Shown here piece by piece: positions 19,200-62,655 of a stretch of 64,000 nt of DNA. The translations under genes and the position numbers were made by a program. Location of the stretch: the NCBI GenBank assembly GCA_028715785.1, contig JAQURC010000007.1, forward strand, positions 22,884 to 86,883. The letters are read 5' to 3'. The notes beneath the pieces are model-generated. The model was not told the DNA's origin, ran no database searches, and worked only from the letters and a program-made list of their open reading frames with translations. The number at the start of each line of letters is the position of its first letter. The stretch's first letter is position 1. The DNA comes from Candidatus Omnitrophota bacterium (lineage in GTDB: Bacteria > Omnitrophota > Gorgyraeia > Gygaellales > Profunditerraquicolaceae).

Positions 19200-19209
19200 T
19201 AACAACCAA

Positions 19210-19238
19210 AGTATAGACAAAATCCTCCCTTTTGTCAA
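19210..19238 (-). promoter_or_regulatory. sigma70-type promoter of the dcw operon (TTGACA-17-TATACT)
   Basis: The minus strand reads TTGACAaaagggaggattttgtcTATACT, with the -35 at about 19233-19238 and the -10 at about 19210-19215. The MraZ box lies immediately downstream. Confidence 0.65.
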
Positions 19239-19301
19239 GAAAAAATTTTCCTAAATTCAGCAAATACAATCAATTGGGGATAAAACGGGCCTGGTGCCCA
19301 G

Positions 19302-20225
19302 CTATTGTGGTTTTTTGCGCGGCTGCCGCAGGGCCTGGCGGCAGGAAATTATATCTTTTTGGATTTGCGATGATAACTCTCCCAAAGAAGCGAATTTTTT
19401 ATCCGGCCGTATCAATTTAACAAATTGGATCTCAAGCGTCCGGCCATAAATATTTTTATGGAAACCAAATATGTGCACCTCGACGTGGATAGATTTATTT
19501 TTAGAATCAATTGTCGGCCTTCTGCCGATATAACAGATACCATCATAGCGCTTGGCGGAAAATACGATCTCAACCGCGTAAATGCCGGCTGAAGGAATGA
19601 CTTCATGATGCGGATTAATATTGGCGGTAGGAAAACCTAAAATACGGGCAAGCCGGCTGCCTTTAATTACCGAACCCAGGATGCTTACCCTGCGGCCAAG
19701 CAGCTCTTCTGCCTCTTCGATCTTTGCGCTCTTGATTAATTTTCTTATGACGGTGCTGCTGATCGAGGCCCCCTTTGATTTCAGGACGTTGAAAATTTTA
19801 AGCTTAAAATTATATTTTCTTGCCGCGTCCCTAAGCAAACTATAATCGCCGCTAGCTTTGTTGCCGAAACGGAAATTCTTTCCCACGCAGACAAACCTGG
19901 CGCCGATTTTTTTAACCAGTATTTCAGCTACAAAATCATCGGCGGTTACCTTCGCAAAGTTGCGGCTGAAATTTACCACTATACATACGTCAATACCCAG
20001 CTCGGCAATTAACCTTAAACGGTGCTCCAAAGAATAAAGGCTGGGCTCCTTCTGCGGATGCGGGGAAAAAGTCAAAACAATACTTGTCCCTTTGTCCCTG
20101 CGCGCTATCCTTACAGCCGCTTGTAAAATATTACGATGGCCGCGATGCACTCCGTCAAAAACGCCTAAAGCCACCGCCGGCCGGGCGTATTTTTTGATTT
20201 TATCTATTCCGCGGATTATAATCAT
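19302..20225 (-). CDS. ribF: bifunctional riboflavin kinase / FMN adenylyltransferase
   Basis: 307 aa with a FAD-synthetase N-domain (LGVFDGVHRGH) and a riboflavin kinase C-domain. Confidence 0.9.
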   Translation of the reverse strand: MIIIRGIDKIKKYARPAVALGVFDGVHRGHRNILQAAVRIARRDKGTSIVLTFSPHPQKEPSLYSLEHRLRLIAELGIDVCIVVNFSRNFAKVTADDFVAEILVKKIGARFVCVGKNFRFGNKASGDYSLLRDAARKYNFKLKIFNVLKSKGASISSTVIRKLIKSAKIEEAEELLGRRVSILGSVIKGSRLARILGFPTANINPHHEVIPSAGIYAVEIVFSAKRYDGICYIGRRPTIDSKNKSIHVEVHIFGFHKNIYGRTLEIQFVKLIRPDKKFASLGELSSQIQKDIISCRQALRQPRKKPQ

Positions 20226-20232
20226 TGAAAAA

Positions 20233-21204
20233 TCATCTTAAGGATTGCCGGATCCTGGCGATAACTTTTTTGGCAATTTTTTTGATATCGCCGGTTAAAG
20301 TGCATCCGGCGGCATTCTTATGCCCCCCTCCATCAAAAGAGGCGGCAATCTCATTTACGTCAACTTTTCCCTGACTCCTTAAATTAACGCGCACCTCATT
20401 ATTTTCTCCGAGGTTTTCTTTAAACAATGCCACAACCTCTACCCCCTTAATTGCCCGGCCAAAACTCAAAGCCAGATCCGCTAAATCAACAGAGGGTTTG
20501 CCGTCCTTAAACAGTTCTTTTTTAATCTGAAATCCGACGACCCTGCCCTGGCAATGGAATTCTATTTTTGGAAGGAGTTTGAGCAGTAATTTTACATCGG
20601 CAGGCGGAATATTCTCATAGGTAGCCCGATAAATTTGGGCGGCATCTATACCGAACTTCAAGAGTTCGGAAGCAGCCTTAAACGTATAGCTGGAAGTGTT
20701 TGAGTAGTGGAAAGAGCCGGTATCGGTCATTATCCCGGTATATAAAGCCACCGCCGCATCCTTATCCATCGGCAGGCGCAATTTTTTATATATTTTATAA
20801 ACCATCTCCGAACATGAAGACGCCCCTGAGTCAACCCAGTTTAGGTCGCCGAAATTACGGTTGCTGATGTGGTGATCGATATTTAATACCGGTTTCTTAT
20901 CCTTATTCAATTTATAAACATCTCCGGTGCGTTTTAGGTCCGCGCAGTCTAATACCGCCAAACAATCAAAATCAACATTCTTAGAGCTCTTATTCAACAG
21001 GCGGATAAGTTTACTGCCCGGCAGAAAATCATAGCCGTAGGGTAATTTATCCTCATTGATGATTGCCCCTCTCTTGCCCAGTTTCTTGATCAGGCTATAA
21101 AATCCTAGCTCTGCGCCCAAGGCATCGCCTTCAGGGCTGGTGTGGACGGTAATCAGGAAACTATTATATTTCTTTATGCTTGCGCAAACTTCATTCAGGC
21201 TCAT
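20233..21204 (-). CDS. nrnA: DHH/DHHA1 family phosphoesterase (NrnA-like oligoribonuclease/pAp phosphatase)
   Basis: 323 aa with a DHH motif (NIDHHISN) and a DHHA1 GGGH motif near the C-terminus. Confidence 0.8.
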   Translation of the reverse strand: MSLNEVCASIKKYNSFLITVHTSPEGDALGAELGFYSLIKKLGKRGAIINEDKLPYGYDFLPGSKLIRLLNKSSKNVDFDCLAVLDCADLKRTGDVYKLNKDKKPVLNIDHHISNRNFGDLNWVDSGASSCSEMVYKIYKKLRLPMDKDAAVALYTGIMTDTGSFHYSNTSSYTFKAASELLKFGIDAAQIYRATYENIPPADVKLLLKLLPKIEFHCQGRVVGFQIKKELFKDGKPSVDLADLALSFGRAIKGVEVVALFKENLGENNEVRVNLRSQGKVDVNEIAASFDGGGHKNAAGCTLTGDIKKIAKKVIARIRQSLR

Positions 21205-27173: not shown

Positions 27174-27247
27174 TCGGGGCGGTGCGACTTGAACGCACGA
27201 CCTCTTGCTCCCGAAGCAAGCGCTCTACCAAACTGAGCCACGCCCCG
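27174..27247 (-). tRNA. tRNA-Pro (anticodon CGG); 3' CCA not encoded
   Basis: The reverse complement reads CGGGGCGUGGCUCAGUUUGGUAGAGCGCUUGCUUCGGGAGCAAGAGGUCGUGCGUUCAAGUCGCACCGCCCCGA. It has a 7-bp acceptor stem, D and T arms, a UUCGGGA anticodon loop and discriminator A. Confidence 0.9.
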
Positions 27248-32259: not shown

Positions 32260-32274
32260 CGCATTAATTTTAAT

Positions 32275-32392
32275 CTTCTCTCATCTGGACTATCACCATC
32301 GGCCCTGGAATCTCACCAGATCTGCTCGCCACTGAACTAATGGCAGGCTCGCGGGCTAAACCGCCGGTAAGGATTTACACCTTGCCCTAAAG
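32275..32392 (-). promoter_or_regulatory. FMN riboswitch (RFN element) aptamer controlling ribBA-ribH-nusB-PHP-ribD-ribE
   Basis: The minus strand reads ...AGGGCAAGGUGUAAAUCCUUACCGGCGGUUUAGCCCGCGAGC...CAGAUCUGGUGAGAUUCCAGGGCCGAUGGUGAUAGUCCAGAUGAGAGAAG. This matches the conserved RFN cores GGGCAGGGUGAAAUUCCC..ACCGGCGGU..AGCCCGCGAGC and GGUGAGAUUCCGGAGCCGACGGUAUAGUCCGGAUGGGAGAAG. Confidence 0.85.
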
Positions 32393-32406
32393 ATTAATTG
32401 TTTATT

Positions 32407-44374: not shown

Positions 44375-46279
44375 TTATTCATAAGATAGAATAATTCTAA
44401 ATGTCTCTCTAGACTTATCAAAATTTTTTGGTAATAGTGGAAATGGCGAAGAATCTTTAACCGCTTTTACTGCCCAAGAAGCCAATGACGGATCAGCCGT
44501 GTTCAGGATTTTCGGTTCATCTACTAAATCTCCTTGACGGGAAACTGTAAAACTAAGGAATACCTCCCCTTTTCCCTCTTTCGGCAAATTTAACTTCGAA
44601 AAGCGGTTAATTTTATCGATGACAATAAGAGAATATTCTCTTAACCATGCACTATCAGGCCCTAAAGCTGCCATGGCTGTTTCTTCACTGTCAGTTGAAA
44701 CTTTACTAATGATAACCTTGCCCTTAACCATTTTTGCCACAGCTCCGTCTTTAGGTTTTATCTCTGAGAAATCCGAATAGGAAGTCTCTCCCGACATTAT
44801 GTGCGGAGTCAAAAGGATTACTAAATCACTTTTCTCCAGCTTATCGTCTATACTCCTAAAAAAATATCCCAATAACGGGATATCTCCAAGTATAGGAACT
44901 TGCTTCACGGTCTTTATTCTTTTATCTTTTCTTAAACCGGCAATGATTACTGTTATGCCATCTTTTACCGTAACAGTAGTCTCTGATTCGGAGGTCGTAA
45001 CAATAGGAACATAATTATGTGCTGTGGCTGTGCCAAAATCTTTATATTCGCTGGAGCTTATTTCAGGTTTAATCTTCATAGTTACGAAATTATCTTTATT
45101 AATTGCAGGAGTAACATAAAGCTTGATGCCCACATCAACAAAATTTACCTGGTCAGCCGTTATTTCCGTTCCGGTTCCGGATTGCGAAATAGACTGAGTA
45201 ACATATGCCTCTTTGGTACCTACAAGTATCTTCGCCTCTTGGTTATTTAATGCCATCACCCGCGGGCTTGAGAGTATTTTCGTGTCCCCTATTGTGCGTA
45301 AAATATCTATAATTGCTTGAGACTGCCCCTTTTTAGTGGGAGTAGAATTGGCCGTGCCTAAAATTAAGGCTCCGGTCGTATTTATGGGAAACCCCATCTT
45401 AACATCAAAATATTTTTGAATCCAAAAGTTCCAATCTACCCCCATCTTGAATTGATCAGACGGAGTAATTTCGATAATCTGGGCATCAATTAAAACCTGC
45501 GCGGTCTTTTCGTCAAAAGCCTTGACGATCTCTTCAATCTCCGCAAGCTTCGCAGGATAATCAGTTACAGCAATTTTGTTCGTGCGCTCATCAAATCTAA
45601 TTAACCCCACGCCTTTGGTAATAACTTCCTGCAATTTGGGGTTTAATTTATCCGCCAACGCATAATTAAGGTTGAATATCTTTGTCTTAAGCGGCTGGTC
45701 GGTTGATTTAATAAAATCTTCCATAGCCTTGACCTTCTCAGGCCCGTCTATTAAGATAACGGTGTTTGAGCCCTGATCCACAACTACCTTTCCGAGATCG
45801 CTTTTTAGCTGGGTTAAAGCTACTGCCGAATCCACTGCTTTTGAATATTTTAAGTGGATAATCTTGGCCTGTTTCTTATTCTGGAAACTTTCTCCATAAA
45901 GTAGCTCATAATCCCTTTGTGTCATAACATTAACGATTTGGCCCTTCTTCTCATAAGCAAGGTCATTGGCTGAAATGACTATTTCAAAAACATCATTGAT
46001 TTCTACGTCTTTTAAAAATAAAGTTACCCTTCCAACAACATTCTTCCCTATCACAATATTCATCCCTGAACGCGCAGAGATAATCTTTAATACATCGACC
46101 ACATCCATACCTTTAACATCTAAGGTGATTTTATTCGAGACAACAACGGAACGCTCAATAGTTTCCATAGGGGCAGCAAACGGTTTGTTTTTCTCTTCTA
46201 CGCCATTCTGCTCATCTTGCGCATAAACGGCAGATACAAAAAATATTAGAACCAACATTAACAATAACTTATTTTTCAT
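44375..46279 (-). CDS. gspD: secretin (GspD/PilQ family) with C-terminal TonB-C-like extension
   Basis: 634 aa with a signal peptide, N-terminal secretin N domains and a secretin domain (ILGDIPLLGYFFRS). The last ~100 aa resemble a TonB C-terminal fold (EGKGEVFLSFTVSRQGDLV...ASWAVKAVKDSSPFPLLP). Confidence 0.85.
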   Translation of the reverse strand: MKNKLLLMLVLIFFVSAVYAQDEQNGVEEKNKPFAAPMETIERSVVVSNKITLDVKGMDVVDVLKIISARSGMNIVIGKNVVGRVTLFLKDVEINDVFEIVISANDLAYEKKGQIVNVMTQRDYELLYGESFQNKKQAKIIHLKYSKAVDSAVALTQLKSDLGKVVVDQGSNTVILIDGPEKVKAMEDFIKSTDQPLKTKIFNLNYALADKLNPKLQEVITKGVGLIRFDERTNKIAVTDYPAKLAEIEEIVKAFDEKTAQVLIDAQIIEITPSDQFKMGVDWNFWIQKYFDVKMGFPINTTGALILGTANSTPTKKGQSQAIIDILRTIGDTKILSSPRVMALNNQEAKILVGTKEAYVTQSISQSGTGTEITADQVNFVDVGIKLYVTPAINKDNFVTMKIKPEISSSEYKDFGTATAHNYVPIVTTSESETTVTVKDGITVIIAGLRKDKRIKTVKQVPILGDIPLLGYFFRSIDDKLEKSDLVILLTPHIMSGETSYSDFSEIKPKDGAVAKMVKGKVIISKVSTDSEETAMAALGPDSAWLREYSLIVIDKINRFSKLNLPKEGKGEVFLSFTVSRQGDLVDEPKILNTADPSLASWAVKAVKDSSPFPLLPKNFDKSRETFRIILSYE

Positions 46280-46932: not shown

Positions 46933-47750
46933 GCATTTATCTCATGAATTTCAAGAAGACTATTTATTGTCTGGACGTCAACTTGCACCTGCTCCTTCAT
47001 AACTATTATCTCAAGAGCATCATGGCAGATCATAGCAATCTTACGGGGATGCCCTTGAGTGAGTTGATAAATCATTTTGATTGCATCGTCCGTAAATAAT
47101 GGTGTTGGATTATTATAGCCTGCCTGGTTTAACCTAAACTCAACCATTTTCTTAGTTTCAGGCTCATCAAATGGATTAATCGTATATTTTAAAGCAATCC
47201 TATCCATAAAATTACGCATCCGCTTTACCCGCGGCAGTAATTCTACTTGAGTCATAATTACAAGTTGCAATAGTTTATATTCATTAGTTTCATAATTAAG
47301 CAATGTCCTTAAGGCCTCTAGATTTTCTAAAGTAATCTTCTGCCCCTCATCGATTAAGAGAACAATAGTTTTATCCTTGTCCACCCCTTGATAAAAAAGA
47401 TATTTTTCCAATGCTTCTTTAAGATCAAGGGCAGATTTAGACGAAGTGGTTATATCAAATAATCTAACTAAACTTTGCAGAAACTGGAATTCAGATTTAT
47501 ATCCGGGATCTAAAATCATATGCAAAATGAAATCTTCCTCATCCTTAAAAGTTTGCAATAAAGTGCGCATTAAGGTGGTTTTACCAACCCCTACATCGCC
47601 TAAAATTAAACTTAAGCCCCTACGCAGCCTGATAGTTATTTCAAGACGCTTAAGAGCAGTTTCATGGCTTATGGACCGGTAGAAAAAATCCGGGTCAGGA
47701 CTGGTGGAAAACGGCTCTTTTTGTAAGCCCAGAACGCTATAATAACTCAT
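46929..47750 (-). CDS. gspA: ExeA/GspA-like AAA ATPase
   Basis: 273 aa with a Walker A motif (GDVGVGKTT) and Walker B motif (LLIDEGQ), an AAA_22 fold. Confidence 0.8.
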   Translation of the reverse strand: MSYYSVLGLQKEPFSTSPDPDFFYRSISHETALKRLEITIRLRRGLSLILGDVGVGKTTLMRTLLQTFKDEEDFILHMILDPGYKSEFQFLQSLVRLFDITTSSKSALDLKEALEKYLFYQGVDKDKTIVLLIDEGQKITLENLEALRTLLNYETNEYKLLQLVIMTQVELLPRVKRMRNFMDRIALKYTINPFDEPETKKMVEFRLNQAGYNNPTPLFTDDAIKMIYQLTQGHPRKIAMICHDALEIIVMKEQVQVDVQTINSLLEIHEINA

Positions 47751-47958
47751 CTTTAATTTCCTTTAACGACTTGCCTTCTTTTCTCAAGCTGCGGATTTTT
47801 TTTAATTTTTCCACAGTAGTTTCGTCAAAATAACGATACCTGGTTTCAGGACTGCGGTTAACTTCTTTAATCAGGCCAGTTTTTAAGTAGAATTTAAGCG
47901 TATAGACAGAAAAACCAGTTGTTCTTGATAAGTCTTTAATAAGCAATACATTAATCAT
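47737..47958 (-). CDS. MerR-family HTH transcriptional regulator (short)
   Basis: 73 aa with an N-terminal MerR-type HTH (IKDLSRTTGFSVYTLKFYLKTGLI). First gene of the gspA-C-D operon. Confidence 0.7.
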   Translation of the reverse strand: MINVLLIKDLSRTTGFSVYTLKFYLKTGLIKEVNRSPETRYRYFDETTVEKLKKIRSLRKEGKSLKEIKDELL

Positions 47959-47971: not shown

Positions 47972-48013
47972 CTCTCTAACTAGAGAGTATAGCAGTAACT
48001 TACGACTTGTCAA
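47972..48013 (-). promoter_or_regulatory. Promoter (TTGACA-16-TATACT) with palindromic operator ACTCTCTA-GT-TAGAGAGT overlapping -10/+1
   Basis: The minus strand reads TTGACAagtcgtaagttactgcTATACTCTCTAGTTAGAGAGTgagagtaaaattATG. The palindrome arms are 8 bp. Confidence 0.55.
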
Positions 48014-48017: not shown

Positions 48018-48939
48018 AGAATTATACTGCCCCCTATTAACAGAAAGGGTATTTTAAGCCAGATCGCCCGGACTCAATACTACCAGTGGCGCGATCAATT
48101 GCTTAAGCATGGAAAATCAGCTTTTGAAACCAAAGACGCCACTAAAAAAGAACAGCACTTGGAACTTGAAAACCAAAAGCTTAAACGGATAATCGGTGAC
48201 TTAACCGTTGAGCTTAAAAAAAACGAATTTTAACCATGAAAAGAGCAAAATCTCAAAGCGTTATAGAACGCAATCAAGCGCTGCTTACGCAAATTCAGGA
48301 GATCAAGACCGACCATCCCCTCTGGGGCTACCGTAGAATCTGGTTATACCTGAAATACCGCCAAGGCATACCGGTGAATAAGAAACGCATCTACCGCCTG
48401 ATGAAAGAACAAAACTTAATCGTTACCCCCAACGCCAGACTTAAAGCTAAACGCGGCCCTCTTCGTCCCAAGCCGCATGCCGAGCGGCCCAATCACTTCC
48501 GGGGTATTGATATGACTAAGATCAAGATGGCCGGCTGGGGATGGCTGTATCTTACTGTGGTTCTTGACTGGTACACCAAGGAGATTGTCGGCTATCATCT
48601 TGGGTTACAGCCTAAAACCGAAGACTGGCTGAAAGCCTTGTACCAGGCCGTCAGTCGACATCGCAGAGATTTATGATGAATTGCGCTTGTTTGGGTATTA
48701 AGCAGATATTTACCACCTGGAGCAACCCTAAAGGCAATTTCGATACCGAACGCGTCATGCGCACGATCAAAGAAGATATTGTCTGGTGCTATGACTGGGA
48801 TAACCCGTTTGATTTTGAAATCGCACTCAACAAATGGATAGACAATTATAACACGGATTACCCGCATCAGGCATTAAACAACCTGACGCCAAAACAGTAC
48901 TGCGAAACTTATTTCAACAAAGAGCCGGTTCTAACTTGA
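48018..48939 (+). mobile_element. Decayed IS3-family insertion sequence (5'-truncated orfA, frameshifted/internally deleted orfB)
   Basis: The orfA fragment at 48018-48230 encodes only ...ILSQIARTQYYQWRDQLLKHGKSAFETKDATKKEQHLELENQKLKRIIGDLTVELKKNEF, an IS3 OrfA C-half, and ends in an A7 slippery tract. The orfB integrase-core is split into 48236-48676 and 48673-48939, and about 25 aa are missing around the HSDxGSQY region. No intact terminal inverted repeats were found. Confidence 0.8.
48236..48939 (+). pseudogene. IS3-family transposase OrfB (rve integrase core), disrupted
   Basis: Two consecutive ORFs in different frames: LWGYRRIWLYLKYRQGIPVNKKRIYRLMKEQNL...WLYLTVVLDWYTKEIVGYHL, then ...GIKQIFTTWSNPKGNFDTERVMRTIKEDIV...YPHQALNNLTPKQY. 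The DDE middle is deleted. Confidence 0.8.
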
Positions 48940-49041
48940 AAACCCCTTGACTAATGGGGAGTATTACAACAGCTTTATGGACATCTGTATACGGCTTATA
49001 AACAGGTCAATATCATCTTTGATTAAAACATCAATAAATTA

Positions 49042-50494
49042 CTATTTAAGATCAAAAAAGATAAGATTATTATAGGTGAAATATGTGTATCTACTTGATA
49101 GAAACTTTACCAAGCCTGTATTTTCTTCCTGAGGAATAACTATCATAAGTGATAATTTCTTGACAGCGTTGATTTTTTCAAATTCTTCTATACTTTTGAT
49201 AACCGTGTATTTTCTATCTACATACCAACTCGTTGGGACTGAAATTCTAAAACTTACTCCTATTTCTTCATTGGGCATAGATACTGAATTAATCTTAACC
49301 GCAATCTTGTGACTTATATCAAATTTAAAAGAATGCAAAGAGAGAAAGTTAAGATAAGACTGTATAAGAAATAAAATGATAAAACTTAAAATAAGAATTT
49401 GAGATATTCTTTTGTTATGCAAAATTTTTTCCAGTGATAATAACCCTACTGCAGAAACGATAGAAAAAAATGGAAGAAAATAGTAGAGTTGATAATCATG
49501 CTCCCAGGCTCCCTCTCGAAACAAAAAAACATTTACTAAAGGCAAACTGAGAAAAATAATGATCAAACTTTTTCCCCAAGATAGATTTAAACTTCTTTTT
49601 ACAGCAAAAAAAAATAATGCCCCATAAAGCAAGAAAGGAAATGACAGGTGTAAATAAAAACTTGATCCGGTTACTTTCTAATAGTAAAAATTCCGTCCAA
49701 GTAAATTGATGGATTTTATTTGGACCAAAACGACTAATAATTGAATTAATATTATCGCTTAACGACCCTTTTATGGAATAAATCCAAAAGATATAAATAA
49801 GTGCGAATATCGCGGGCAACAAAGAAAACATAACAATTGGCCTTTTATCCTTAATATTTTTATAACCGAAAATTAAATAATGAATTAACAGAAGTATCGA
49901 AAAATAGAAAGTCGCCCATGCAGTCAAATAGGCTAATATAAAGCTGGCTATTATTCCTACTAGGTATAAAATTTTTCTTTTATCCAGGTATTTTAGATAT
50001 AGAAGCATTATTAAAAAATAAAGGAATAAAAAAACAGGTTCGTGGTTTGCCATTCTTCCATAATAGATAAACATCGGGGTAAAACCCAAAAAAACTAAAG
50101 ATAACAAAGCAATAATTTTATCTTTGTAAGATCTAACAATTAGATAAAATAAAATTAGTGCCAACACAGAAAATATAATAGGAACTATCCTGGCGCTCCA
50201 TTCATGGATACCAAATAATTTAAAACTGATGGCTACAAAATAAGCGACCATAGGAGGATGATGGAGATAGTAATCAAAATTCTGCGGGGCTACGCTACCC
50301 ATATCCCACGTAGGAGACATTTTTGTTTTTAAAAACCCAAAGGTGAGGAAATTCTTTGCAAATCTACTGTACACCGTACCATTAAAATCAAACAAACCTA
50401 CCCATGGCTGGCTTATTTCATAACATAACCCTATAGTAACTATGATAATTATTACTAGAATTAATATTACTTCTTTATGTTTCATCAGTAACAA
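49042..50494 (-). CDS. GT-C fold glycosyltransferase (family 39/ArnT/PMT-like), reading frame broken by a homopolymer tract
   Basis: Two overlapping ORFs, 49496-50494 (332 aa, polytopic) and 49042-49632 (196 aa), both hydrophobic across the overlap. An A9/T9 run at 49606-49614 and an A7 run at 49523-49529 lie in the overlap. The joined length of about 520 aa matches ArnT-like enzymes. Confidence 0.65.
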
Positions 50495-50606
50495 TACATT
50501 GGTTTTTCTTAGCGCACATTAATAATAAACCCGTCTCTGAATGGAAAGCGGGTTTAGAAAATTTAAAACCTAAGATAAATTGATACAATTATACTTTAAT
50601 TCCAAA

Positions 50607-52859
50607 TTATAAATCTCCTGGATCATACGGAACGTTGGAAATTTTCAACCCATCACATAGAGTCGAATACGTTTCATTAAAAGTCCCCGATATGTTTAGT
50701 GTATTCTGGTCAAAAAAACCAAAAGAATTAAAACTAATTCCCTCAATAGAAAGTCGAGTCCAGGAAGTTAGCGTATGGCTATTATATCCAATACCTTCAC
50801 CGGAAATCCTTGCAGTATCAAGACTGACCACTACACTTTCAGATGGATAAGAAGTCATGTTTTGCTGGAAGAACCACGCACTACCCGGATTATAGGGAGA
50901 ACTTTTAGGCAGAGTAAGTATATAACCTTCAGAATTCACTGCAGCATAAAGATGATGTGCATTCAATGTTGAATGAGCAAAACTATATGCAATACTCAAT
51001 CGCACCTGACTTAAGGATATTGTAATATTTTCACTAATTGATGAGCTTGCAGAAAATGTGGGCGCTTCTCCTCTCTCTTCAGTATTAAACTGACCACCAT
51101 ATACAGCTGCATGAAGCATTGTACTAACTCCCCTGAACACTCCAGGAAATGTTATAGAATCACCTAAATAATATGACCCTCTCCAAGTACCCCAAATCCC
51201 TACGCCGGAATCATCCCACCAGCCACAAGTATAATTTTCTGTTTTACTTTTCCTATCAGAAATACTACCGCTTATTAAGGCACCTGCATCTATTGAAGTC
51301 CTCGTAAATGTAAATGTTAGTTCTTGTGTTGTTTCTCCAATAACATCTATATTTTGTTCCAAAACCATGCCGTTGAACTTCGCTTTAATTGTATGGTTAC
51401 CTGAGGGAATCGATATAGGCTTGCCATGAGTAGCGGCATCATAGGCCCCGGAACCAATTAAAACATCGCCATCATATATCCCAACGCTGCCTTGACCCAG
51501 CCCTTTTATGCTCCCGATCTCCTTGCCTTCCGGATTATGGCAATGGACAATGATGTTAGCGCTTGACTGGGCCGTTACTTTGACCCAGAATACCTTTATA
51601 ACTGAAGCCAGGCCGGCGGGGTTCTTGATCTGGCAGGAAACCTTGTAGGTGCCTTCTCCCGGGAAGGCAATGGCCTGGTCAAACTCTGCTACCGGTGAAT
51701 CGGGGTTATTGGGGATCCAGAGGCCTGAGGGTTCAAGCAGGCTGGTTTGCACAGGCATAGTATAACCATCGCTCTGCCTGATAATAGTCATATTCAGAAC
51801 GCTGTCCGCCGGAAGATATTCCTTGTAAACCTTGCCTTTGATTGAGATTGAGTTGGTGTTGATTTCGGTAGTAGAATCTGCCTGAGGATTATCCAGAGTA
51901 AATTCGGGAGGGGTGGAGTCGAGGAAGGCGAGGATTTTATTATCGGTTTCTTCTGAGGCTATTTTAGGCTCTCGCCAATGGTTAGCGTATATCTGTGAGG
52001 ACTGTTTCAAAGAAACATAGCTGGTCCCTAACTGACTAACTTTTGAAACTAGCGAATCTCCACCTTTCCAATCTTTAAACAAAAACCAGTTAGCTAAATT
52101 ACCATCTATACCAATTATTCCGTAATAATTTATGGTTGAGGATTGACCAACTTTATTTAGCTTATCTATAAAACCACTTCCTCCAGGGCTATTATCCAAA
52201 TCATCGATTGCTTCTCCGTTAATATCTATAGAGAATGCATTAGTATATAAATCGACATTATCTCTTACAAAAGACATTACGCTGCTTACTGGCACCAAAG
52301 TTAACCAACCAAGTTTCGGTATCTTTGATAGTGCATTTGCCGACTCAGCCAAAGGGGAACCTAAATTTGGCACTCCTATTAAAATTATTTTTTCTGTGAA
52401 GTTAGAAGAATAATTAGCTAAATACCATCTTGCTGCTAAACCACCCATGCTGTGGCAGACTAGATTTAATTTAGTCGCATAGTTACCGTATTTCGTTGTA
52501 GATAATAATTCATTTACTTTATCTTGTAATTTATCAGACCAACCTTTGGAATTACCTTGAGGATTTAGTTTTCCGGAATCATAAGTATCAACCGAGCCAT
52601 TGGGATCTTGAAAGTCTATAGTTTCTATATAACTATAAGTATTGAGATATTTGGAAAAGTATTTGGCTAATGATGTTCTAGCAGTATCCCAGCTTCCAGA
52701 ACCACCGGTTGCAAAACCATGTAAAAAAAGTACTGGACGAGGCTTGTATGCTTTAGAATCATTCCAGCTGGGGAGGACTCCGGCAAAGCAACTCTGCGTT
52801 GAAAATAAAACAAGTATGGTGACAAAGAAAAAAATAAAACGTTTATTTCTTTTGGTCAT
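50607..52859 (-). CDS. secreted alpha/beta-hydrolase (lipase/esterase-like, GHSMGG nucleophile elbow) with large beta-rich C-terminal region
   Basis: 750 aa with a signal peptide, LFLHGFATGG, and VCHSMGGLAARW (GxSxG). It sits next to the T2SS genes, so it is a probable T2SS cargo. Confidence 0.7.
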   Translation of the reverse strand: MTKRNKRFIFFFVTILVLFSTQSCFAGVLPSWNDSKAYKPRPVLFLHGFATGGSGSWDTARTSLAKYFSKYLNTYSYIETIDFQDPNGSVDTYDSGKLNPQGNSKGWSDKLQDKVNELLSTTKYGNYATKLNLVCHSMGGLAARWYLANYSSNFTEKIILIGVPNLGSPLAESANALSKIPKLGWLTLVPVSSVMSFVRDNVDLYTNAFSIDINGEAIDDLDNSPGGSGFIDKLNKVGQSSTINYYGIIGIDGNLANWFLFKDWKGGDSLVSKVSQLGTSYVSLKQSSQIYANHWREPKIASEETDNKILAFLDSTPPEFTLDNPQADSTTEINTNSISIKGKVYKEYLPADSVLNMTIIRQSDGYTMPVQTSLLEPSGLWIPNNPDSPVAEFDQAIAFPGEGTYKVSCQIKNPAGLASVIKVFWVKVTAQSSANIIVHCHNPEGKEIGSIKGLGQGSVGIYDGDVLIGSGAYDAATHGKPISIPSGNHTIKAKFNGMVLEQNIDVIGETTQELTFTFTRTSIDAGALISGSISDRKSKTENYTCGWWDDSGVGIWGTWRGSYYLGDSITFPGVFRGVSTMLHAAVYGGQFNTEERGEAPTFSASSSISENITISLSQVRLSIAYSFAHSTLNAHHLYAAVNSEGYILTLPKSSPYNPGSAWFFQQNMTSYPSESVVVSLDTARISGEGIGYNSHTLTSWTRLSIEGISFNSFGFFDQNTLNISGTFNETYSTLCDGLKISNVPYDPGDL

Positions 52860-53493
52860 TTTTAATAGGCTTAACGATTATTTCTTTTTTAACTAATTTA
52901 CCATTTTTGTAATACTCTCTTATATTTGGCTTACCATCATAGTCAGTATCGATTTCTTTTTTATAAACTTCACCGTTCTTATAGTATTCCCAAACATCAG
53001 GCTTGCCATCAAGATTAGCGTCATAGTCAACTTCAGTAAGCCTATCATAGATATCGTTATGAACCCACTTATGTGCTTTACCATCACCTACAGTATCAAC
53101 TGTTCCAACGTGCTCCTTCCCAGATTGTAACTCCCTTACGAATTGATTAACTGGTTGAAATAATAACACTCCAATTGCAAAACAAACAATACAAAAAATA
53201 ACGAAGACAATTTTAATTTGCTTATTAGTAAAATTTTTGGGTATCAAGAATTTAAAAACAACGTGAGCAACTAATCCTATAGCTCCAGCAATAATGATCC
53301 CGATTACAGCTATACCGCATAGCAAAAAATAACCTACTAAGATTAAAAAAGTCGGTAGAAGATAACTAAAGTTTTTCCAATCAAACATCATATTTACCAT
53401 CATTAATAAATAGACTAAAGAAAATCCTAAAAAATTAGATACCCCTATAATAATCGCCGCTTTAAGTGGCCTTATATTTTTATCCTCTTCCAT
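52843..53493 (-). CDS. membrane protein with C-terminal MORN_2/YwqK-like repeats
   Basis: 216 aa with 3-4 TM helices followed by repeats (KWVHNDIYDRLTEVDYDANLDGKPDVWEYYKNGEVYKKEIDTDYDGKPNIREYYKNGKL). Confidence 0.6.
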   Translation of the reverse strand: MEEDKNIRPLKAAIIIGVSNFLGFSLVYLLMMVNMMFDWKNFSYLLPTFLILVGYFLLCGIAVIGIIIAGAIGLVAHVVFKFLIPKNFTNKQIKIVFVIFCIVCFAIGVLLFQPVNQFVRELQSGKEHVGTVDTVGDGKAHKWVHNDIYDRLTEVDYDANLDGKPDVWEYYKNGEVYKKEIDTDYDGKPNIREYYKNGKLVKKEIIVKPIKNDQKK

Positions 53494-53503
53494 CTCTTCT
53501 CTC

Positions 53504-55084
53504 CTATTGTCTATTGGGGTCGAAAATATCGTCTGATAGATTTTGATTGATTTTCAAGTTGTTATAAATTAAAGTCGAGATCAATTTTCCAGAAGTTAAA
53601 TTCGGGTTCTTGGTCATCTTAACCGGCAGCCAAGCGCCATTAGGCAATTTTCGGAAGCCCACAGCAGCAGTTTCTTGAACTAACTCAAGGATATTGGCTT
53701 GGTTTATTCGATAAATTGAAAACTTAGTAATTAAACCTTTCTTATAATCGATTAAAATACCGAGTTTATCATAGATATTATTTTTCTCATTAGGACTGGC
53801 ATCTAAGGCAATGATCATATTATTGAAATCGGTGTTAAGGTCATTTCTTGAAACTGTATTCTTACTTAAAAAAAGTGTTTGGTTATAATGAAGGTCTAGC
53901 TGGCTAAACTCAGTTGAGCTAATCCCGGCATCAGCCAGTAAATCTACAGTCTGTTTTATATTTGCTATTGGGTTAATTAAATGCATATTAGTGCCGCTGA
54001 TTATGATAATGTCGTTTTTAACTTTTCTTGCAGCATCATTAAATGTCTCGGTCTTCTCCTTATTCGGGGCTTTGAAGTAGTAGCGGCAGTAATCGGTTGC
54101 TCCAAAGGGTTTTGCGTTTAAGGTCGAGGATAAAGTCATATTCGCGCTAAAGTCAGAGATTTTGGCATAGTTATCCGCTACTCTTTTTAAGACTTCCTGG
54201 GCAGTTGGGTCGATGATGCGTATAGAGATAGTTTTTGAGGTTAGATTGGAGTTTGAGTCTTTTACTTCACAAGTGATGCTTACAGCCCCCTTATCAGCTG
54301 GTGATGTCTGCCAAATATAGGTATTTGAAGACGACCAGGCTTGTTTTACAGTTCCGCCGATAGAAAACTGATACTGCAGGGGGTCATGATCGGGGCCAAA
54401 GGCATAGGCTTTAATATTGATCGCGGCTCCGGCTAAAAAGACAGAGTTATCTTTTGGAAGAATACGAGCTATCACGGGGGGCTTATTGCTTACAGTTATA
54501 TTCCAGGTTCCCTTCTGCACCCAGCCGCTGGAGGCATTGGCATTGTCTTTTACCGAAAGATAGGCCTTCTTGGCACCGATAGAGGCGGCCTTAAAGGTTA
54601 CCGCCCACTTAACGGTTAAGGTATTGCCTGAACCTGAAATTGTAGTTTTAGAGCAATCTAATTTAACATAGGAGTTTTCAATGATCCTGGCTGAACGGGG
54701 GGCGAATCCGCCTAACCAGGCGGTGTTAGCGTTATTGCGCAGGTAGAGCTTGTTTATAGAACGGTTGTAATAACCGTAGAAGCAGTTTGCTCCATTGGCC
54801 GAGGTATTAATAAGCAGATTGGCGGATTTGATATCTTGCCAGCCGTTGGCATCAGAATAAGTAGTGGTAAAGTTCACTGGCTGGTAAGGATTAGATGTCC
54901 CGCTTACAGGAGTAATGGTCCCGGCAGCAGGCTTGTAGTTTGCGGCAAAGGCGTTGGTTAGAAGTAAACAAAAAAATAGGAATAACCCTAAAAAGGTTAT
55001 TCCTTTAGCTGCTAGTTTTGTGTTCAGACAGGGCATTATTTGCTTCCTTGGCTGGCTTGCGGCAGATTGAAAGCAACTTAACAT
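53504..55084 (-). CDS. secreted protein with Ig-like N-region and LolA-like C-terminal domain
   Basis: 526 aa with a signal peptide (ITFLGLFLFFCLLLTNAFA, probable start at M17) and beta-rich repeats. The C-terminal ~200 aa resemble lipoprotein-carrier/LolA-like folds. Low-confidence domain call. Confidence 0.5.
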   Translation of the reverse strand: MLSCFQSAASQPRKQIMPCLNTKLAAKGITFLGLFLFFCLLLTNAFAANYKPAAGTITPVSGTSNPYQPVNFTTTYSDANGWQDIKSANLLINTSANGANCFYGYYNRSINKLYLRNNANTAWLGGFAPRSARIIENSYVKLDCSKTTISGSGNTLTVKWAVTFKAASIGAKKAYLSVKDNANASSGWVQKGTWNITVSNKPPVIARILPKDNSVFLAGAAINIKAYAFGPDHDPLQYQFSIGGTVKQAWSSSNTYIWQTSPADKGAVSITCEVKDSNSNLTSKTISIRIIDPTAQEVLKRVADNYAKISDFSANMTLSSTLNAKPFGATDYCRYYFKAPNKEKTETFNDAARKVKNDIIIISGTNMHLINPIANIKQTVDLLADAGISSTEFSQLDLHYNQTLFLSKNTVSRNDLNTDFNNMIIALDASPNEKNNIYDKLGILIDYKKGLITKFSIYRINQANILELVQETAAVGFRKLPNGAWLPVKMTKNPNLTSGKLISTLIYNNLKINQNLSDDIFDPNRQ

Positions 55085-55134
55085 ATAACTCTATAAATTG
55101 CAAGAATATTTTTCATGAGGCTAGATAGCCCGCT

Positions 55135-59734: not shown

Positions 59735-60940
59735 TTATCTTGCAATTAAATTTATTTGAAATATTGGCAGAAGCATGGCTAAAACGATAAAACCAACCAC
59801 CAAACCAACGCCTAAAATTATAACCGGTTCAAGCATACGGGCTAGCGATTTTAAAGACCGGTCAACGTCCCTCTCATAGTCATCAGCAATGCGCATCAGG
59901 GATTTTTTCAACGTCCCGGTTTCCTCTCCGATGATTACGATATTAGTTACAAAATTGGGGAATAATTTGCATTTTTTCATAGAATTTGAAAGGCTCAATC
60001 CTCCTATAATATCAGCTTTAATCTGACTAGTCTCCAATTTTAAAACCCGATTTTCCAGTATCGAAGAAACTATATCCAAAGAAGGAACAAGTGACAAGCC
60101 TCCCGAGAGCAGTAATGATAATGTGCGCGTCAGACGGCTAATTTCCGTCTTTAGGGTAATTTCGCCTAATACCATTAATTTTAGTTTAAACTTATCCCAT
60201 GCTAACCTCCCCGGGGGGCTAAGATATAGCCTGCGCAGAAAAAATATAACAACCAACGCAAGCGCAATAATTATTATCCAATATTTGCTAAAAACTACCG
60301 AGGCCTCAATCAATATCTTTGTAGGTAAAGGTAAAACCTGCCCCATATCTTCGAACATATTCACCAGCCGCGGTATGACAAAACCTATAAGAACAATAAC
60401 CGTTAACACACCTACACAAAAAACAAAGGCGGGATATACTAACGCTAAGCGAACTGAATTCCTAAATTCTTCTTCTTTTTCAAGAAAATCTGCCAGCCGC
60501 GTAAGGGTAGTTTTCAGGCTTCCGCTTACTTCCCCAGAGTTGATTATCGCGGTATAAAGCCGGGGGAAAACTTCAGGGTGCGTTGCCAGGCTATCAGAGA
60601 ATGATTTACCGTCTTTTATCCTGCCGACCACATCTCCCAAAACTTCTTTTAAATAGAGATTGGGCATTTGGCTCATAACAATATTCAAGCCGCTTACAAT
60701 AGGTACTCCTGAATCTACGAGGGTGGATAACTGACGAATAAATAAAACAATATCGTGTTTGGAAATCTTCTTGGGAGTTTTATTTAAAACTCTTGAATTC
60801 TTAACTTTTGGGGTAACGGAAATCGGAAAATATCCAACTTGGCCAATTTTATTAATTGCCTCTTGAACTGATTCTGCCTCGATTTCTCCTTCTATAGTAT
60901 TTTGAGGATCAGTTTTTGCTAAATAGACAAAAATCGGCAT
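59735..60940 (-). CDS. gspF: T2SS inner-membrane platform protein F (GspF/PilC family)
   Basis: 401 aa with duplicated T2SSF domains and 3 TM segments. Confidence 0.88.
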   Translation of the reverse strand: MPIFVYLAKTDPQNTIEGEIEAESVQEAINKIGQVGYFPISVTPKVKNSRVLNKTPKKISKHDIVLFIRQLSTLVDSGVPIVSGLNIVMSQMPNLYLKEVLGDVVGRIKDGKSFSDSLATHPEVFPRLYTAIINSGEVSGSLKTTLTRLADFLEKEEEFRNSVRLALVYPAFVFCVGVLTVIVLIGFVIPRLVNMFEDMGQVLPLPTKILIEASVVFSKYWIIIIALALVVIFFLRRLYLSPPGRLAWDKFKLKLMVLGEITLKTEISRLTRTLSLLLSGGLSLVPSLDIVSSILENRVLKLETSQIKADIIGGLSLSNSMKKCKLFPNFVTNIVIIGEETGTLKKSLMRIADDYERDVDRSLKSLARMLEPVIILGVGLVVGFIVLAMLLPIFQINLIAR

Positions 60941-62655
60941 TAATCCTCGTGCGGTTCCTCTAATTGGGTTACGCGGAGCACTTCAGCAAAACTAGTCAGC
61001 CCTTTAAATACCTTATGCAGTCCGTCTTGGCGCAAAGTACGCATTCCCTGCGAGATAGCCTTCTGTTTTATTTGCTGACTGGAAACTCGGCTTAAAATTA
61101 ATTCCCTGATTGATTCGGTTACAGTCAAAATCTCATAAATTCCGGTTCTCCCTCGGTAACCGGTAAACCTGCAATATTCGCATCCCTTACCCCCGTAGAA
61201 TCTCATCTCCGATTCAGGCAGTTTAACATCTTTTATCTGGTCCAAAATATCCTTCTTCGGTTTTAATTCTATCTTGCATTTAGGACAGATTAAACGCACA
61301 AGGCGCTGGGCAATAAGACACCCCAGCGAAGATGAAACTAAAAATGGTTCCATCCCCATATCTAACAACCTTGTCACGGCGCCGGCGGCATCATTGGTAT
61401 GCAGGGTTGAGAAAACTAAATGCCCAGTCAGAGCCGACCTAATTGCGATTTCTGCTGTTTCAAAATCCCTAACTTCGCCAACCATCATCACATCGGGGTC
61501 ATGCCTCAACATATGCCTTAATGCTGTGGCAAAAGTAAACCCGATCTGTGGATTAACCTGAATCTGGCTTACGCCCCGCAACTGATATTCAACGGGGTCT
61601 TCAATAGTGATAATCTTTATAACGGATGAATTAATACGCGCCAAAGCTGCATAAAGGGAAGTAGATTTTCCAGAACCCGTCGGCCCAGTAACAAATATGA
61701 CTCCATGGGGTTTTTTAATCGCACTCTCAACAATCGATAAATCTTCCGGGCCCATTCCTAAATTCTCTAACTCCAGAAAGGATTGAGTACTCAAAATCCT
61801 AATATGCACTGCTTCCCCAAAAGCAGTCAAGAGAATCGAAACGCGCAAATCCAACTCTTTATCTTCAACTTTAATCTTTATCCTGCCATCCTGTGGAAGC
61901 CGGCGCTCGGCAATATTAAGCTGCGCCATAATTTTAATACGCGAGACAATAGCGAGACGAAAGTACTTAATGGTATCGGGGATATTTATATCATAAAGTA
62001 TACCATCGATGCGGAACCTCGTACGCAATTCATTCTGAAACGGCTCAAGATGTATATCAGTGGCTCTCTCTCTTATCGCCTCGGTAAGTATCTGATTAAC
62101 AAATCTGACTATAGAAGCATCTTCGGCCATTTCTTCAAGATTTTCGGTTTTCTCAGAGAACAACTTTAACTCTTCCTGCGGCTGCTTCTGCGCAATTATC
62201 TTCTCTAATGTATCAGCCCCTACTCCATAATATTTACGTATAGCCTCCTGGATCTCTGTTTCGCTGGACAAAACCCCTCTTACTTCCACCCCCAGAAGAA
62301 GCCTTATATCATCCAGAGTACGTACATCAAGAGGATCGATCATGGCTATAACCAAAACATTATTATCAATTTCTACGGGTATTATTTTGTAGTAACTAGC
62401 GAATTTGGCAGGAACTTTTTTAATTACCAGTGGATCGATATCGCGGTCTTTTAGATTAAGGCAGGGAATATTTAGCTGTTCAGAAAGAATTGCCAATACT
62501 TTCTCCTGAGTCGCAAAACCTAACCTTACCAGAATGGTGCAGATAAAATGGTATGTCTTTTTCTGTTCACGCAAACCCTCTTCCAGCTGTTCAGGCGTGA
62601 TTATGCCTTTACTTATCAATAACTGCCCGATTAGTATATCATTTTTCTGCGGCAT
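60940..62655 (-). CDS. gspE: T2SS ATPase E (GspE/PilB family)
   Basis: 571 aa with an N-terminal T2SSE_N domain, a Walker A motif (GPTGSGKST), Asp box, Walker B motif, His box and a tetracysteine motif (CPKC...CEYC). Has a TTTACT-17-TATAAT-like promoter upstream, at about 62670-62700. Confidence 0.9.
   Translation of the reverse strand: MPQKNDILIGQLLISKGIITPEQLEEGLREQKKTYHFICTILVRLGFATQEKVLAILSEQLNIPCLNLKDRDIDPLVIKKVPAKFASYYKIIPVEIDNNVLVIAMIDPLDVRTLDDIRLLLGVEVRGVLSSETEIQEAIRKYYGVGADTLEKIIAQKQPQEELKLFSEKTENLEEMAEDASIVRFVNQILTEAIRERATDIHLEPFQNELRTRFRIDGILYDINIPDTIKYFRLAIVSRIKIMAQLNIAERRLPQDGRIKIKVEDKELDLRVSILLTAFGEAVHIRILSTQSFLELENLGMGPEDLSIVESAIKKPHGVIFVTGPTGSGKSTSLYAALARINSSVIKIITIEDPVEYQLRGVSQIQVNPQIGFTFATALRHMLRHDPDVMMVGEVRDFETAEIAIRSALTGHLVFSTLHTNDAAGAVTRLLDMGMEPFLVSSSLGCLIAQRLVRLICPKCKIELKPKKDILDQIKDVKLPESEMRFYGGKGCEYCRFTGYRGRTGIYEILTVTESIRELILSRVSSQQIKQKAISQGMRTLRQDGLHKVFKGLTSFAEVLRVTQLEEPHED

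Follow-up and report, generated by a model that had tools for sequence, protein, structure and literature searches.

What occupies the gap in the type II secretion system (T2SS) locus of this Omnitrophota genome, how did it get there, and is it connected with the secretion machine on either side? The window, by which we mean the whole 64,000-nucleotide (nt) stretch analysed here (contig JAQURC010000007.1 of a Candidatus Omnitrophota bacterium), carries gspE to gspM and the merR-gspA-gspC-gspD genes. Between these two halves lie a fragment of an IS3-family insertion sequence (IS), a GT-C glycosyltransferase, a hydrolase, a membrane protein and a LolA-like protein. The first-pass annotation read these genes as a block that was brought by the IS3 element and has since decayed, with the hydrolase as the obvious secretion substrate. 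The genes that it named lie where it placed them, and all real genes from 44.3 to 62.7 kb run on the minus strand, the IS fragment excepted. We suggest a different history, to which we give a probability of about 55%: the slot was filled by a lipase-containing trio of genes after this lineage split from its nearest relatives, the IS3 element is a later passenger, and the lipase and the LolA-like protein of the trio are exported by the T2SS.

The loci of close relatives were fetched through homologues of GspL. In L006/L007 (86% nt identity over gspE-gspM) and in L008/L009 (79%), gspM is followed by 82-108 bp and then by merR-gspA-gspC-gspD. This short spacer carries the same TTGACA-N16/17-TA(T/C)ACT promoter and the same palindrome, CTCTCTAnnTAGAGAG, as the window. 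Thus, the Omnitrophota T2SS locus is naturally two transcription units, gspE to gspM and merR-gspA-gspC-gspD, the merR promoter is the start of the second, and the extra DNA of the window sits exactly at the boundary. Comparison with these relatives places the extra DNA at about 48,024-55,097, so that it measures about 7.1 kb rather than the 7.7 kb first estimated. At the left junction TTCTTGCAA (55098-55106) has been kept and lines up with the merR promoter's -35 region in uninterrupted relatives, and new sequence begins beyond it; on the merR side, homology restarts about 10 nt upstream of the -35 box. A scan of a genome collection with GspL found one relative, L001, which was assembled independently, comes from Lac Pavin and has 87% nt identity; its contig stops 152 bp beyond gspM and so shows the left junction only. 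The gspM-side junction is the same as in the window, and a gene starts at the same place.

A census of the position was made by scanning metagenomes with a GspL alignment, which gave 77 further loci. Pooled with the earlier loci they form 70 distinct GspL groups, 38 of them informative. The gspM gene is followed within 300 bp by merR, by gspA or, in one locus, by gspC in 20 of the 38; four have 0.85-3.95 kb of other genes between gspM and merR, and in the remaining 14 other genes follow gspM and neither merR nor gspA is present in the available sequence. The interruption is therefore real and derived relative to L006/L007, L008/L009 and 18 further distinct loci that are contiguous; this is the comparison with uninterrupted relatives that the first-pass annotation had proposed. 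Within the close clade, the slot is occupied in the window and L001, empty in L006 and L008, and holds other cargo in L010. Parsimony over this clade, together with the predominance of the contiguous state across the phylum, favours a gain in the window/L001 lineage.

What else is found after gspM? S8 subtilases occur there in three loci (L051, L060 and L044), SpvB/ZU5 proteins in L010 and L035, an H-type lectin-like protein in L010, a dockerin protein in L036, and immunoglobulin (Ig)-rich proteins, from 1,185 to over 2,500 amino acids (aa) long, in L024 and L048; a few loci have toxin-antitoxin-like small genes. L010 has a T2SS that is 77% nt identical to that of the window and yet carries different cargo in the same place. 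This case and the occupants found in the census show that the site behind gspM is variable and has been used for cargo again and again, mostly for signal-peptide proteins of kinds that T2SSs usually export. A further protein of about 100-117 aa with the motif LDKLGKD (...LDR.ELEFLDKLGKDA.FSTGHKL...) follows gspM in L024 (region 12270-12939), L028, L033, L039, L045, L051 and L065. It belongs to no Pfam family and is not encoded in the window. A PilZ or PilZ-like gene comes after it in L024 (Pfam PilZ, 3.4e-13), L033 and L039, and the protein might regulate the cargo genes. In L008, in which the slot is empty, a 1,215-aa S8 peptidase with a dockerin domain is encoded just downstream of the secretin (16788-20435); candidate substrates may also be found at the distal end of the T2SS locus.

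The main occupant of the slot in the window is a set of three genes, of which the hydrolase gene is the last. A Sec-type signal peptide, MTKRNKRFIFFFVTILVLFSTQSCFA with the following residue G, precedes an α/β domain resembling family-I lipases (residues ~40-320), two β-sandwiches (~320-520) and a variable C-terminal region. The signal peptides of this protein and of the LolA-like protein were called by heuristic reading of the n-h-c pattern, which is kept in the homologues of each. Across 52 homologues, Ser137 in the nucleophile elbow CHSMG, Asp268 and His294 are invariant, as is G48 of the HG oxyanion motif, and H47 is present in at least 90%. CHSMG is a variant of GxSxG since the first small residue is Cys; the corresponding motif in Bacillus LipA is AHSMG. 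Thus, the earlier call of a secreted GxSxG hydrolase is supported by the signal peptide, for which the first-pass annotation had asked, and by the intact triad, and needs amending as regards the literal motif.

An AlphaFold2 (AF2) model of the hydrolase has a pLDDT of 78 overall and above 90 for residues 40-520. Foldseek matched it to the Archaeoglobus fulgidus lipase (3e-10) and Pseudomonas aeruginosa LipA (1ex9, 1.8e-8), and also to a Proteus lipase and Legionella PlaB; the lipases 3w9u, 4gw3, 1ex9, 1cvl and 6cl4 give E-values of 3e-9 to 5e-8 with target TM-scores of 0.52-0.62. A profile of the hydrolase family, searched against the PDB (hits at 8e-10), found the family-I lipases of Burkholderia, Chromobacterium and Pseudomonas (entries 1qge, 1cvl and 1tah), Bacillus LipA and PGAP1. 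A look-up of the exact protein returned no record. The hydrolase is predicted to have a competent lipase-like active site. The structures that match best, AFL of A. fulgidus (2zyh) and PlaB of Legionella (6zth), have a similar layout, with an N-terminal α/β hydrolase and one or more C-terminal β-rich domains. However, their identity to the window hydrolase is 9-12%, the C-terminal parts are not superposable (overall TM-score 0.18-0.29), and the genomic contexts differ.

The C-terminus of the hydrolase (50607-50640) reads ...SNVPYDPGDL and ends in KISNVPYDPGDL. Most homologues (P0002-P0089) end in [KR]-x-S-S-[VI]-P-Y-D-[LF]-x-G-x-x-[IV]-COOH, and the approximately 200 residues before this conserved tail are hypervariable and poorly modelled. 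P0087 and P0089 have only about 100 residues in common with the hydrolase, yet they have the same kind of tail. The tail could be the closing β-strand of a conserved domain with a variable insert, or it could act as a sorting tag at the C-terminus.

The middle gene of the three encodes the 216-aa membrane protein, and its stop overlaps the start of the hydrolase gene by 17 nt. The protein belongs to no Pfam or NCBIfam family. It had been described as a MORN-repeat protein, which we could not confirm: the MORN_2 match has E = 0.15 and covers one 12-residue stretch (0.29 in the orthologue from L004), and hints of EF-hand, dockerin and FG-GAP-like repeats are just as weak. Its description as a membrane protein stands, with about four transmembrane (TM) segments. 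A Lif-type foldase was considered for the middle gene and rejected, as there is no homology and the type-B middle genes of other trios are plain TPR proteins.

The first gene encodes the 510-aa LolA-like protein. Translation starts at the ATG at 55036, behind the ribosome-binding site AGGAAG, in agreement with the 510-aa NCBI call and not at 55084 as first given; the fold and the signal peptide of the first-pass description hold. The signal peptide (...FLFFCLLLTNAFA, then A) is followed by one β-sandwich repeat module of about 150 aa, a Big_7-like Ig domain and a LolA-superfamily domain of about 230 aa. The AF2 model of the last domain has a pLDDT of 92.7, and Foldseek matches it to 3buu (1.2e-10, target TM-score 0.68), 3bk5, 4z48 and LolA3, and to the LolA proteins of Escherichia coli, P. 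aeruginosa and Vibrio cholerae at 5e-8 to 1e-6. Pfam PF17131 (LolA_like) scores 24.8-26.8 bits on the protein, under its gathering cut-off of 30, and several homologues carry a precomputed match to this family. The domain has the same open β half-barrel fold, with a helical lid, as NE2245 (3buu), the VP protein 3bk5, the DUF1329 protein 4z48, Porphyromonas gingivalis LolA3 and PF17131/TP_0789-like proteins (target TM-scores 0.65-0.68). Unlike known members of the superfamily, it is fused behind Ig and repeat modules, and a lipase gene always accompanies its gene; the protein is distinct from the housekeeping LolA.

The β-sandwich module of about 150 aa (54470-54950, residues ~30-190) has no Pfam family. 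One to five tandem N-terminal copies are present in many Omnitrophota proteins (P0174, P0178, P0186, P0202 and others), and the C-terminal domains behind them differ widely, including LolA-like, ZU5/SpvB, RHS, FG-GAP, β-helix and LamG domains. It does not serve as a general tag of slot cargo, since a hidden Markov model search of the fetched loci found it in trio proteins only. Within the signal-peptide codons of the LolA-like gene, about 30 nt from its start, there is a terminator-like hairpin (54978-55004, minus strand) with a perfect 12-bp stem, a 3-nt loop and a U-run; folded in 81 nt of context, it has a minimum free energy of -16.4 kcal/mol (z = -1.9). The hairpin could be an attenuator, the terminator of the gspE-gspM unit, or a coincidence of Phe and Leu codons. 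No Rfam riboswitch or leader match was obtained at E ≤ 1 in 47.7-55.3 kb.

Is the trio a unit, and does it go with the T2SS? The LolA-like gene, the membrane-protein gene and the hydrolase gene are kept together in all nine contexts of hydrolase homologues that were examined. The first gene always has variable β-sandwich modules followed by Ig and LolA-like domains. The middle gene, which usually overlaps the hydrolase start as it does in the window, comes in two forms, the four-TM/DxDxDG type and a single-TM TPR type. The trio stands in the gspM-merR slot in two of the nine contexts, the window and P0020, and immediately upstream of gspE in two others, P0007 (L004/L005/L050) and P0038 (L089). 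In P0017 (L090), it lies 2.3 kb from a second cluster of PilMN, secretin, E and F genes. The trio is thus beside a T2SS or a cluster resembling type IV pilus (T4P) genes in 5/9. If a genome of 2-3 Mb is assumed to have 2-4 such loci, we estimate that the trio would lie beside a secretin-type cluster by chance in a few percent of cases. The linkage of the trio with the T2SS is therefore real, though not obligatory, and the lipase is a plausible T2SS substrate. To call it the obvious substrate, as was done at first, overstates what context can tell, particularly as the adjacent machine has lost gspG (see below).

The arrangement in P0020, which encodes a hydrolase 47% identical to that of the window, is the most informative. 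Here gspE to gspM are followed by the trio, a PMT_2-TPR glycosyltransferase gene on the opposite strand, and merR-gspA-gspC-secretin, with no transposase. In a different setting, L002 (7522-18084) has two trios in tandem, the second with a TPR-type middle gene, directly after the ribosomal-protein/rpoA operon; a Y1 transposase gene of the IS200/IS605 type separates them. A promoter of the trio common to the different lineages was looked for, and only L091 resembles the window.

The best-known systems of comparable layout are the LipA-LipH/Lif pair of P. aeruginosa and the LipA-LipB pair of Burkholderia, in which a family I.1/I.2 lipase, secreted by a T2SS (Xcp/Gsp), has a membrane-anchored foldase. 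The window module resembles them in the Sec-type α/β lipase fold, in the tightly coupled gene for a membrane-anchored partner, and in the T2SS linkage. It differs in that the partner gene is upstream and is not a Lif homologue (no match to Pfam Lipase_chap), in the CHSMG motif and the approximately 430 extra residues of β-domains in the hydrolase, and in having the LolA-like protein as a constant third member.

What, then, is the role of the IS3 element? The truncated element of the first-pass annotation is indeed there, as partial orfA and orfB below the IS3 cut-off. It has the features of the family, namely the leucine-zipper tail of orfA, an A-run slippery site (A8 at about 48218-48225) and an HTH_21/rve/rve_3 orfB. 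Unlike a complete element, it is frameshifted and lacks the left IS end, the N-terminal approximately 45 codons of orfA, and detectable inverted repeats. Of the 369 positions of NCBIfam transpos_IS3, orfB covers 127-272 and 297-368 (108.9 and 45.8 bits; cut-off 160), and therefore the segment with the second catalytic Asp is gone. The best candidate for terminal inverted repeats (48024-48039 and 48952-48964) has a score of 16, which 32% of shuffles equal. No convincing target-site duplication or flanking direct repeats were found around the IS3 fragment or the block, and a -35-like repeat, TTCTTG(A)CAA, on both sides of the block is too short to be interpreted as one. From its 5' truncation, internal deletion and frameshift we read the element as a dead relic.

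The G+C content at third codon positions (GC3) of the IS3 fragment is 0.565, unlike that of the neighbouring genes. The trio and GT-C genes have 0.26-0.44, which matches the T2SS locus (0.29-0.43), and the rest of the window (about 45 other genes) has 0.45-0.60. The compositional skew for which the first-pass annotation had proposed to look is thus confined to the IS3 fragment, and the test does not discriminate, because the GC3 of the block equals that of the whole T2SS locus. The contrast between the IS3 fragment and the T2SS-like composition of the trio and GT-C genes led us to regard the fragment as a later arrival in a non-essential spacer. The entire low-GC3 T2SS locus might represent an island or move often within genomes. 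The flanks of the locus differ among L001, L006, L008 and the window despite 79-87% nt identity across it.

The glycosyltransferase was correctly recognized as a GT-C protein by the first-pass annotation, and its C-terminal half also has a weak match to Pfam DUF2079. It is encoded by two overlapping open reading frames, with a ±1 shift inside a T9 run (49606-49614); a T8 run would give a protein of about 483 aa. This apparent frameshift could be a sequencing error, a real pseudogene or phase variation, which look alike in a metagenome-assembled genome. The PMT_2 gene beside the trio in the P0020 slot suggests that the window gene is a functional companion of the trio and not random cargo.

We propose the following explanation. 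The gspM-merR spacer, at the merR promoter, would be a permissive, recurrently used cargo slot, which in the window lineage was probably filled after the split from the nearest sampled relatives. The main occupant would be a lipolytic trio, composed of an Ig/LolA-like protein, a membrane protein whose gene is translationally coupled to the hydrolase gene, and a hydrolase resembling family-I lipases with a Ser-Asp-His triad. The PMT_2 GT-C protein would accompany the trio and might have a glycosylating function. The IS3 element would have entered the same non-essential spacer later as a passenger and then decayed. The lipase and the LolA-like protein would be exported by Sec and then released, or displayed on the surface, via the adjacent T2SS. 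The lipase may attack lipids of a host, of prey or of the environment, the LolA-like half-barrel may bind hydrophobic products or the lipid substrate, and the membrane protein may assist the lipase as partner or chaperone, a role analogous to that of the Lif foldase, to which it is not homologous. What we infer here is that export depends on the T2SS, that lipids are the substrate, and that the LolA-like protein and the membrane protein act as carrier and chaperone, respectively.

Other accounts of the origin of the block have to be weighed against this one. A chimeric contig that joins two T2SS halves over unrelated DNA might be feared, given that the source is a metagenome-assembled contig with an IS fragment and homopolymer frameshifts. 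We consider it hardly credible: the gspM-side junction is reproduced in L001, which comes from another lake and so argues against mis-assembly, P0020 has the same architecture, the IS fragment is degenerate and occurs only once, unlike a repeat that would provoke a mis-join, and the NCBI proteins of the same 94.8-kb contig (locus tags PHP73_) match at 100%. Delivery of the trio and the GT-C gene as a foreign block by the IS3 element, for example as a composite transposon that has since decayed, would account for the IS3 remnant at one edge and for the absence of the block from the nearest relatives, and the Y1 transposase between the tandem trios of L002 shows that the module can neighbour mobile elements. 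We regard it as quite improbable. There is a single fragment, at one edge and in the opposite orientation, without detectable inverted repeats or target duplication; its composition differs from that of the block, which matches the T2SS genes; and the trio genes are intact and conserved, damage being limited to the IS3 element and possibly the GT-C gene, so the claim that the block has decayed is not sustained. The IS3 element is probably not the vehicle, given that in P0020 the same slot holds the same trio and a PMT_2 gene but no transposase gene. The first-pass annotation had itself named the same gene order without IS traces as evidence against its proposal, and this is the order that P0020 has. 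Alternatively, trio and GT-C genes between gspM and merR might be ancestral and have been lost from the contiguous relatives by precise deletion between promoter-like repeats. The distant lineage of P0020 has the same order, both junctions of the window carry a -35 box resembling TTCTTG(A)CAA as a possible mediator of excision, and the deletion in gspG (see below) shows that small deletions between short repeats do happen in this locus. Against this, 20 distinct loci, including the two closest relatives, are contiguous with promoter and operator conserved, so that many independent precise losses would be needed in place of a few gains; in other lineages the trio is upstream of gspE or elsewhere; and the short -35 repeat carries little statistical weight. 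We think such an ancestral arrangement unlikely, if slightly less so than transport by the IS3 element. Nevertheless, some points weigh against the late gain that we favour. Only a few close relatives enter the parsimony argument from which the direction of the event is read, at about 86% nt identity the branches of the window, L001 and L006 collapse into a trichotomy, and the arrangement in P0020 would also fit an old occupied slot that the relatives have lost. Furthermore, P0020 and the window were compared by gene content, and their GT-C genes are on opposite strands, one of them with TPR repeats. Ancestral occupancy followed by losses and cassette exchange through recombination between conserved flanks are thus live alternatives. 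A bolder form of the latter, which we think possible but not probable, takes the gspM-merR position as a cassette-exchange slot with the gsp genes as homology arms, and the trio as a new T2SS-linked lipid-harvesting system working with a machine that lacks GspG. Cassettes such as the lipase trio, subtilases, SpvB-like toxins and giant adhesins would be swapped between lineages, and a secreted lipase, a LolA-like lipid shuttle and a membrane partner would strip lipids from other cells, for the benefit of ultra-small, possibly host-dependent Omnitrophota.

As regards function, the main rival to export is a non-secreted system. The trio might serve lipid or lipoprotein homeostasis in the envelope, with a periplasmic or outer-membrane phospholipase, a LolA-like carrier of lipids or lipoproteins and an inner-membrane partner, and its proximity to T2SS genes would then be occasional. 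Members of the LolA superfamily are mostly periplasmic carriers, the middle protein is embedded in the membrane, and the local T2SS has no gspG. In addition, no T2SS is found within 10 kb of the trio in four of the nine contexts, and the trio is nearby in only two of roughly 40 informative T2SS loci. These observations count against export, as does the fact that both the secretion and the lipase activity of the hydrolase were assigned from sequence, model and context. We nevertheless judge the envelope system rather doubtful, since the proportion of contexts beside secretin-type machines (5/9) is far above our estimate for chance, the same slot holds classical exoenzymes elsewhere, and the closest lipase folds belong to secreted enzymes. 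The first protein also has variable adhesin-like β-sandwich modules, common to SpvB, RHS and dockerin proteins, which are typically extracellular.

Is the machine on either side of the slot complete? The features are collected in Table 1. Of the hallmarks of a T2SS, the GspD secretin (85% aa identity to the L006 orthologue), GspE and GspF, and minor pseudopilins including the T2SS-specific GspK and GspJ are present. The canonical GspL is replaced by a PilM/PilN fusion, the GspM-like and GspC-like proteins score below their cut-offs, and no prepilin peptidase GspO is encoded within 44.3-62.7 kb. GspA also matches the NCBIfam XrtA/PEP-CTERM-associated ATPase (2e-51, below cut-off). The merR gene is directly upstream of gspA in the relatives and is integral to the T2SS locus in most of them. 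Its promoter is the top promoter match within 44-63 kb (11/12) and, with the palindrome, is conserved in L006, L008 and L004. The palindrome CTCTCTAnnTAGAGAG (47972-47987, minus strand) overlaps the -10 box, at the same position in all three, and probably serves as operator for the 73-aa MerR-type protein, a regulator with a helix-turn-helix (HTH) but without an effector domain; its place over the -10 box points to autoregulation of the merR-gspA-gspC-gspD unit. MshEN is a cyclic di-GMP-binding module. Its presence in GspE, together with the PilZ genes beside cargo in other loci, hints at cyclic di-GMP control of the system.

Table 1. Features of the T2SS locus and of the DNA in its gspM-merR slot (window coordinates).
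Feature	Coordinates	Strand	Basis
GspD secretin, 634 aa, N0/STN-like N-terminus, ~140-aa C-terminal extension	44375-46279	-	Pfam Secretin 9.7e-47, Secretin_N 7.5e-19
GspC-like protein, 210 aa	46300-46932	-	Pfam T2SSC 5.4e-6, 26.7 bits (cut-off 27); position kept in relatives
GspA/ExeA-like AAA ATPase, 273 aa	46929-47750	-	Pfam AAA_22 8.6e-18
Small MerR-family HTH regulator, 73 aa, overlaps gspA	47737-47958	-	Pfam MerR_1 2.6e-17
merR promoter TTGACA-N16-TATACT, extended TG, with palindrome CTCTCTAGTTAGAGAG (probable operator)	47972-48013	-	Promoter scan
IS3-family orfA C-terminal remnant, ...GILSQIARTQYYQWRDQLL...leucine zipper...NEF, stop	~48042-48235	+	Read directly from sequence
IS3-family orfB (DDE transposase) remnant, split at 48676	48236-48939	+	Pfam HTH_21, rve, rve_3
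GT-C fold glycosyltransferase, PMT_2/ArnT-like	49042-50494	-	Pfam PMT_2 4.5e-20, 72.9 bits (cut-off 26.1)
Hydrolase (predicted secreted), 750 aa	50607-52859	-	Signal peptide, α/β domain, invariant triad, AF2/Foldseek
Membrane protein, 216 aa, ~4 TM segments, C-terminal DxDxDG / W-x-YY-x-NG repeat domain	52843-53493	-	Hydropathy, alignment with other middle genes
LolA-like protein (predicted secreted), 510 aa, first trio gene	53504-55036	-	Domain dissection, AF2, Foldseek
Left junction, gspM stop to trio	55037-55134	-	Alignment of window with L001, L006, L008, L010, L004
GspM/PilO-like protein, 179 aa	55135-55674	-	Pfam PilO; NCBIfam GspM 1.4e-8, 34.6 bits (cut-off 60)
GspL-like PilM/PilN fusion, 489 aa	55671-57140	-	Pfam PilN, PilM_2
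GspK-like protein, 360 aa	57177-58259	-	NCBIfam GspK 2.5e-12, below cut-off
Pseudopilins: GspJ, 203 aa, and two N_methyl pseudopilins, 126 and 153 aa	58222-59661	-	Pfam N_methyl, T2SSJ 1.5e-6
3' relic of major pseudopilin gene gspG, ~85 bp, frameshifted, 28 codons	59645-59729	-	tblastn and interval alignment
GspF, 401 aa	59735-60940	-	Pfam T2SSF 1.6e-61
GspE ATPase, 571 aa, MshEN N-terminal domain	60940-62655	-	Pfam T2SSE 5.4e-134, MshEN 1.2e-20

GspG had been listed among the T2SS proteins of the window, of which only the short 3' relic in Table 1 remains. It was identified by a tblastn search of the window with GspG of L008 and L010 and by alignment of the interval between gspF and the pseudopilin genes. 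The gene is present between gspF and the gene of the 153-aa pseudopilin in L008, L010, L004 and L089. In the window, codons ~1-99 have been deleted between two copies of an 11-bp repeat, TATGAAAAAGA, and an extra A is present; no other T2SSG homologue is encoded in the 64 kb. L001 (~7480-7530) and L006 (~7455-7510) have lost gspG independently of the window, through a different deletion, which fused its 5' end to the next pseudopilin gene. The remaining gsp genes have dN/dS ratios of 0.08-0.35 between the window, L001 and L006, which indicates purifying selection, and therefore the secretion machine seems to have been preserved; a pseudopilin from another source may stand in for GspG. The loss must be set on the other side of the balance when export of the trio products by the adjacent T2SS is considered, and it tempers the claim that the hydrolase is an obvious substrate. 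An FMN riboswitch (110 bits; 32269-32398, minus strand) and one tRNA gene (27174-27247, minus strand) in the window bear no relation to the T2SS locus.

The vgrG-linked effector slots of type VI secretion system (T6SS) loci are variable effector islands attached to conserved secretion genes. The gspM-merR slot is conceptually analogous, in that conserved machine genes flank a position whose probably exported content varies even among close relatives. It differs in the secretion system concerned.

Omnitrophota are widespread, uncultured and often ultra-small bacteria for which predatory or parasitic lifestyles are suspected, and their attack on or feeding on cells is largely inferred from giant genes beside T2SS-like loci. 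We return here to our preferred reading, a cargo slot filled with a lipolytic trio. The giant genes of Omnitrophota have been linked to an upstream T2SS-like locus, a conserved gspD/E/F-containing locus with presumed secreted cargo and PilZ genes beside it (West-Roberts et al., bioRxiv 10.1101/2023.11.21.568195; 10.64898/2026.06.07.730766). The phylum is the same, and the same pattern is seen after gspM in L024, L044 and L048. By contrast, the cargo of the window is a three-gene lipase module with a GT-C gene, located between the halves of the locus at the merR promoter; the gspM-merR slot, the trio and the merR-gspA unit are not described in 10.1101/2023.11.21.568195 or 10.64898/2026.06.07.730766. 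The census of the slot extends this published link, and the locus extends the known theme of secretion operons that carry their own substrates, the points of interest being the trio and the gspM-merR slot. That gspG has been lost more than once, although the other gsp genes stay under purifying selection, is a puzzling feature of these T2SS variants.

If this reading is right, the T2SS operon of these bacteria has a defined variable position that carries exoenzymes of ordinary size and not giant proteins alone. The gene content between gspM and merR would then be a simple genomic marker for cataloguing candidate secreted proteins of the phylum, and the recurrent module of lipase, LolA-like protein and membrane partner would provide concrete, clonable candidates for the attack on, or scavenging of, lipids.

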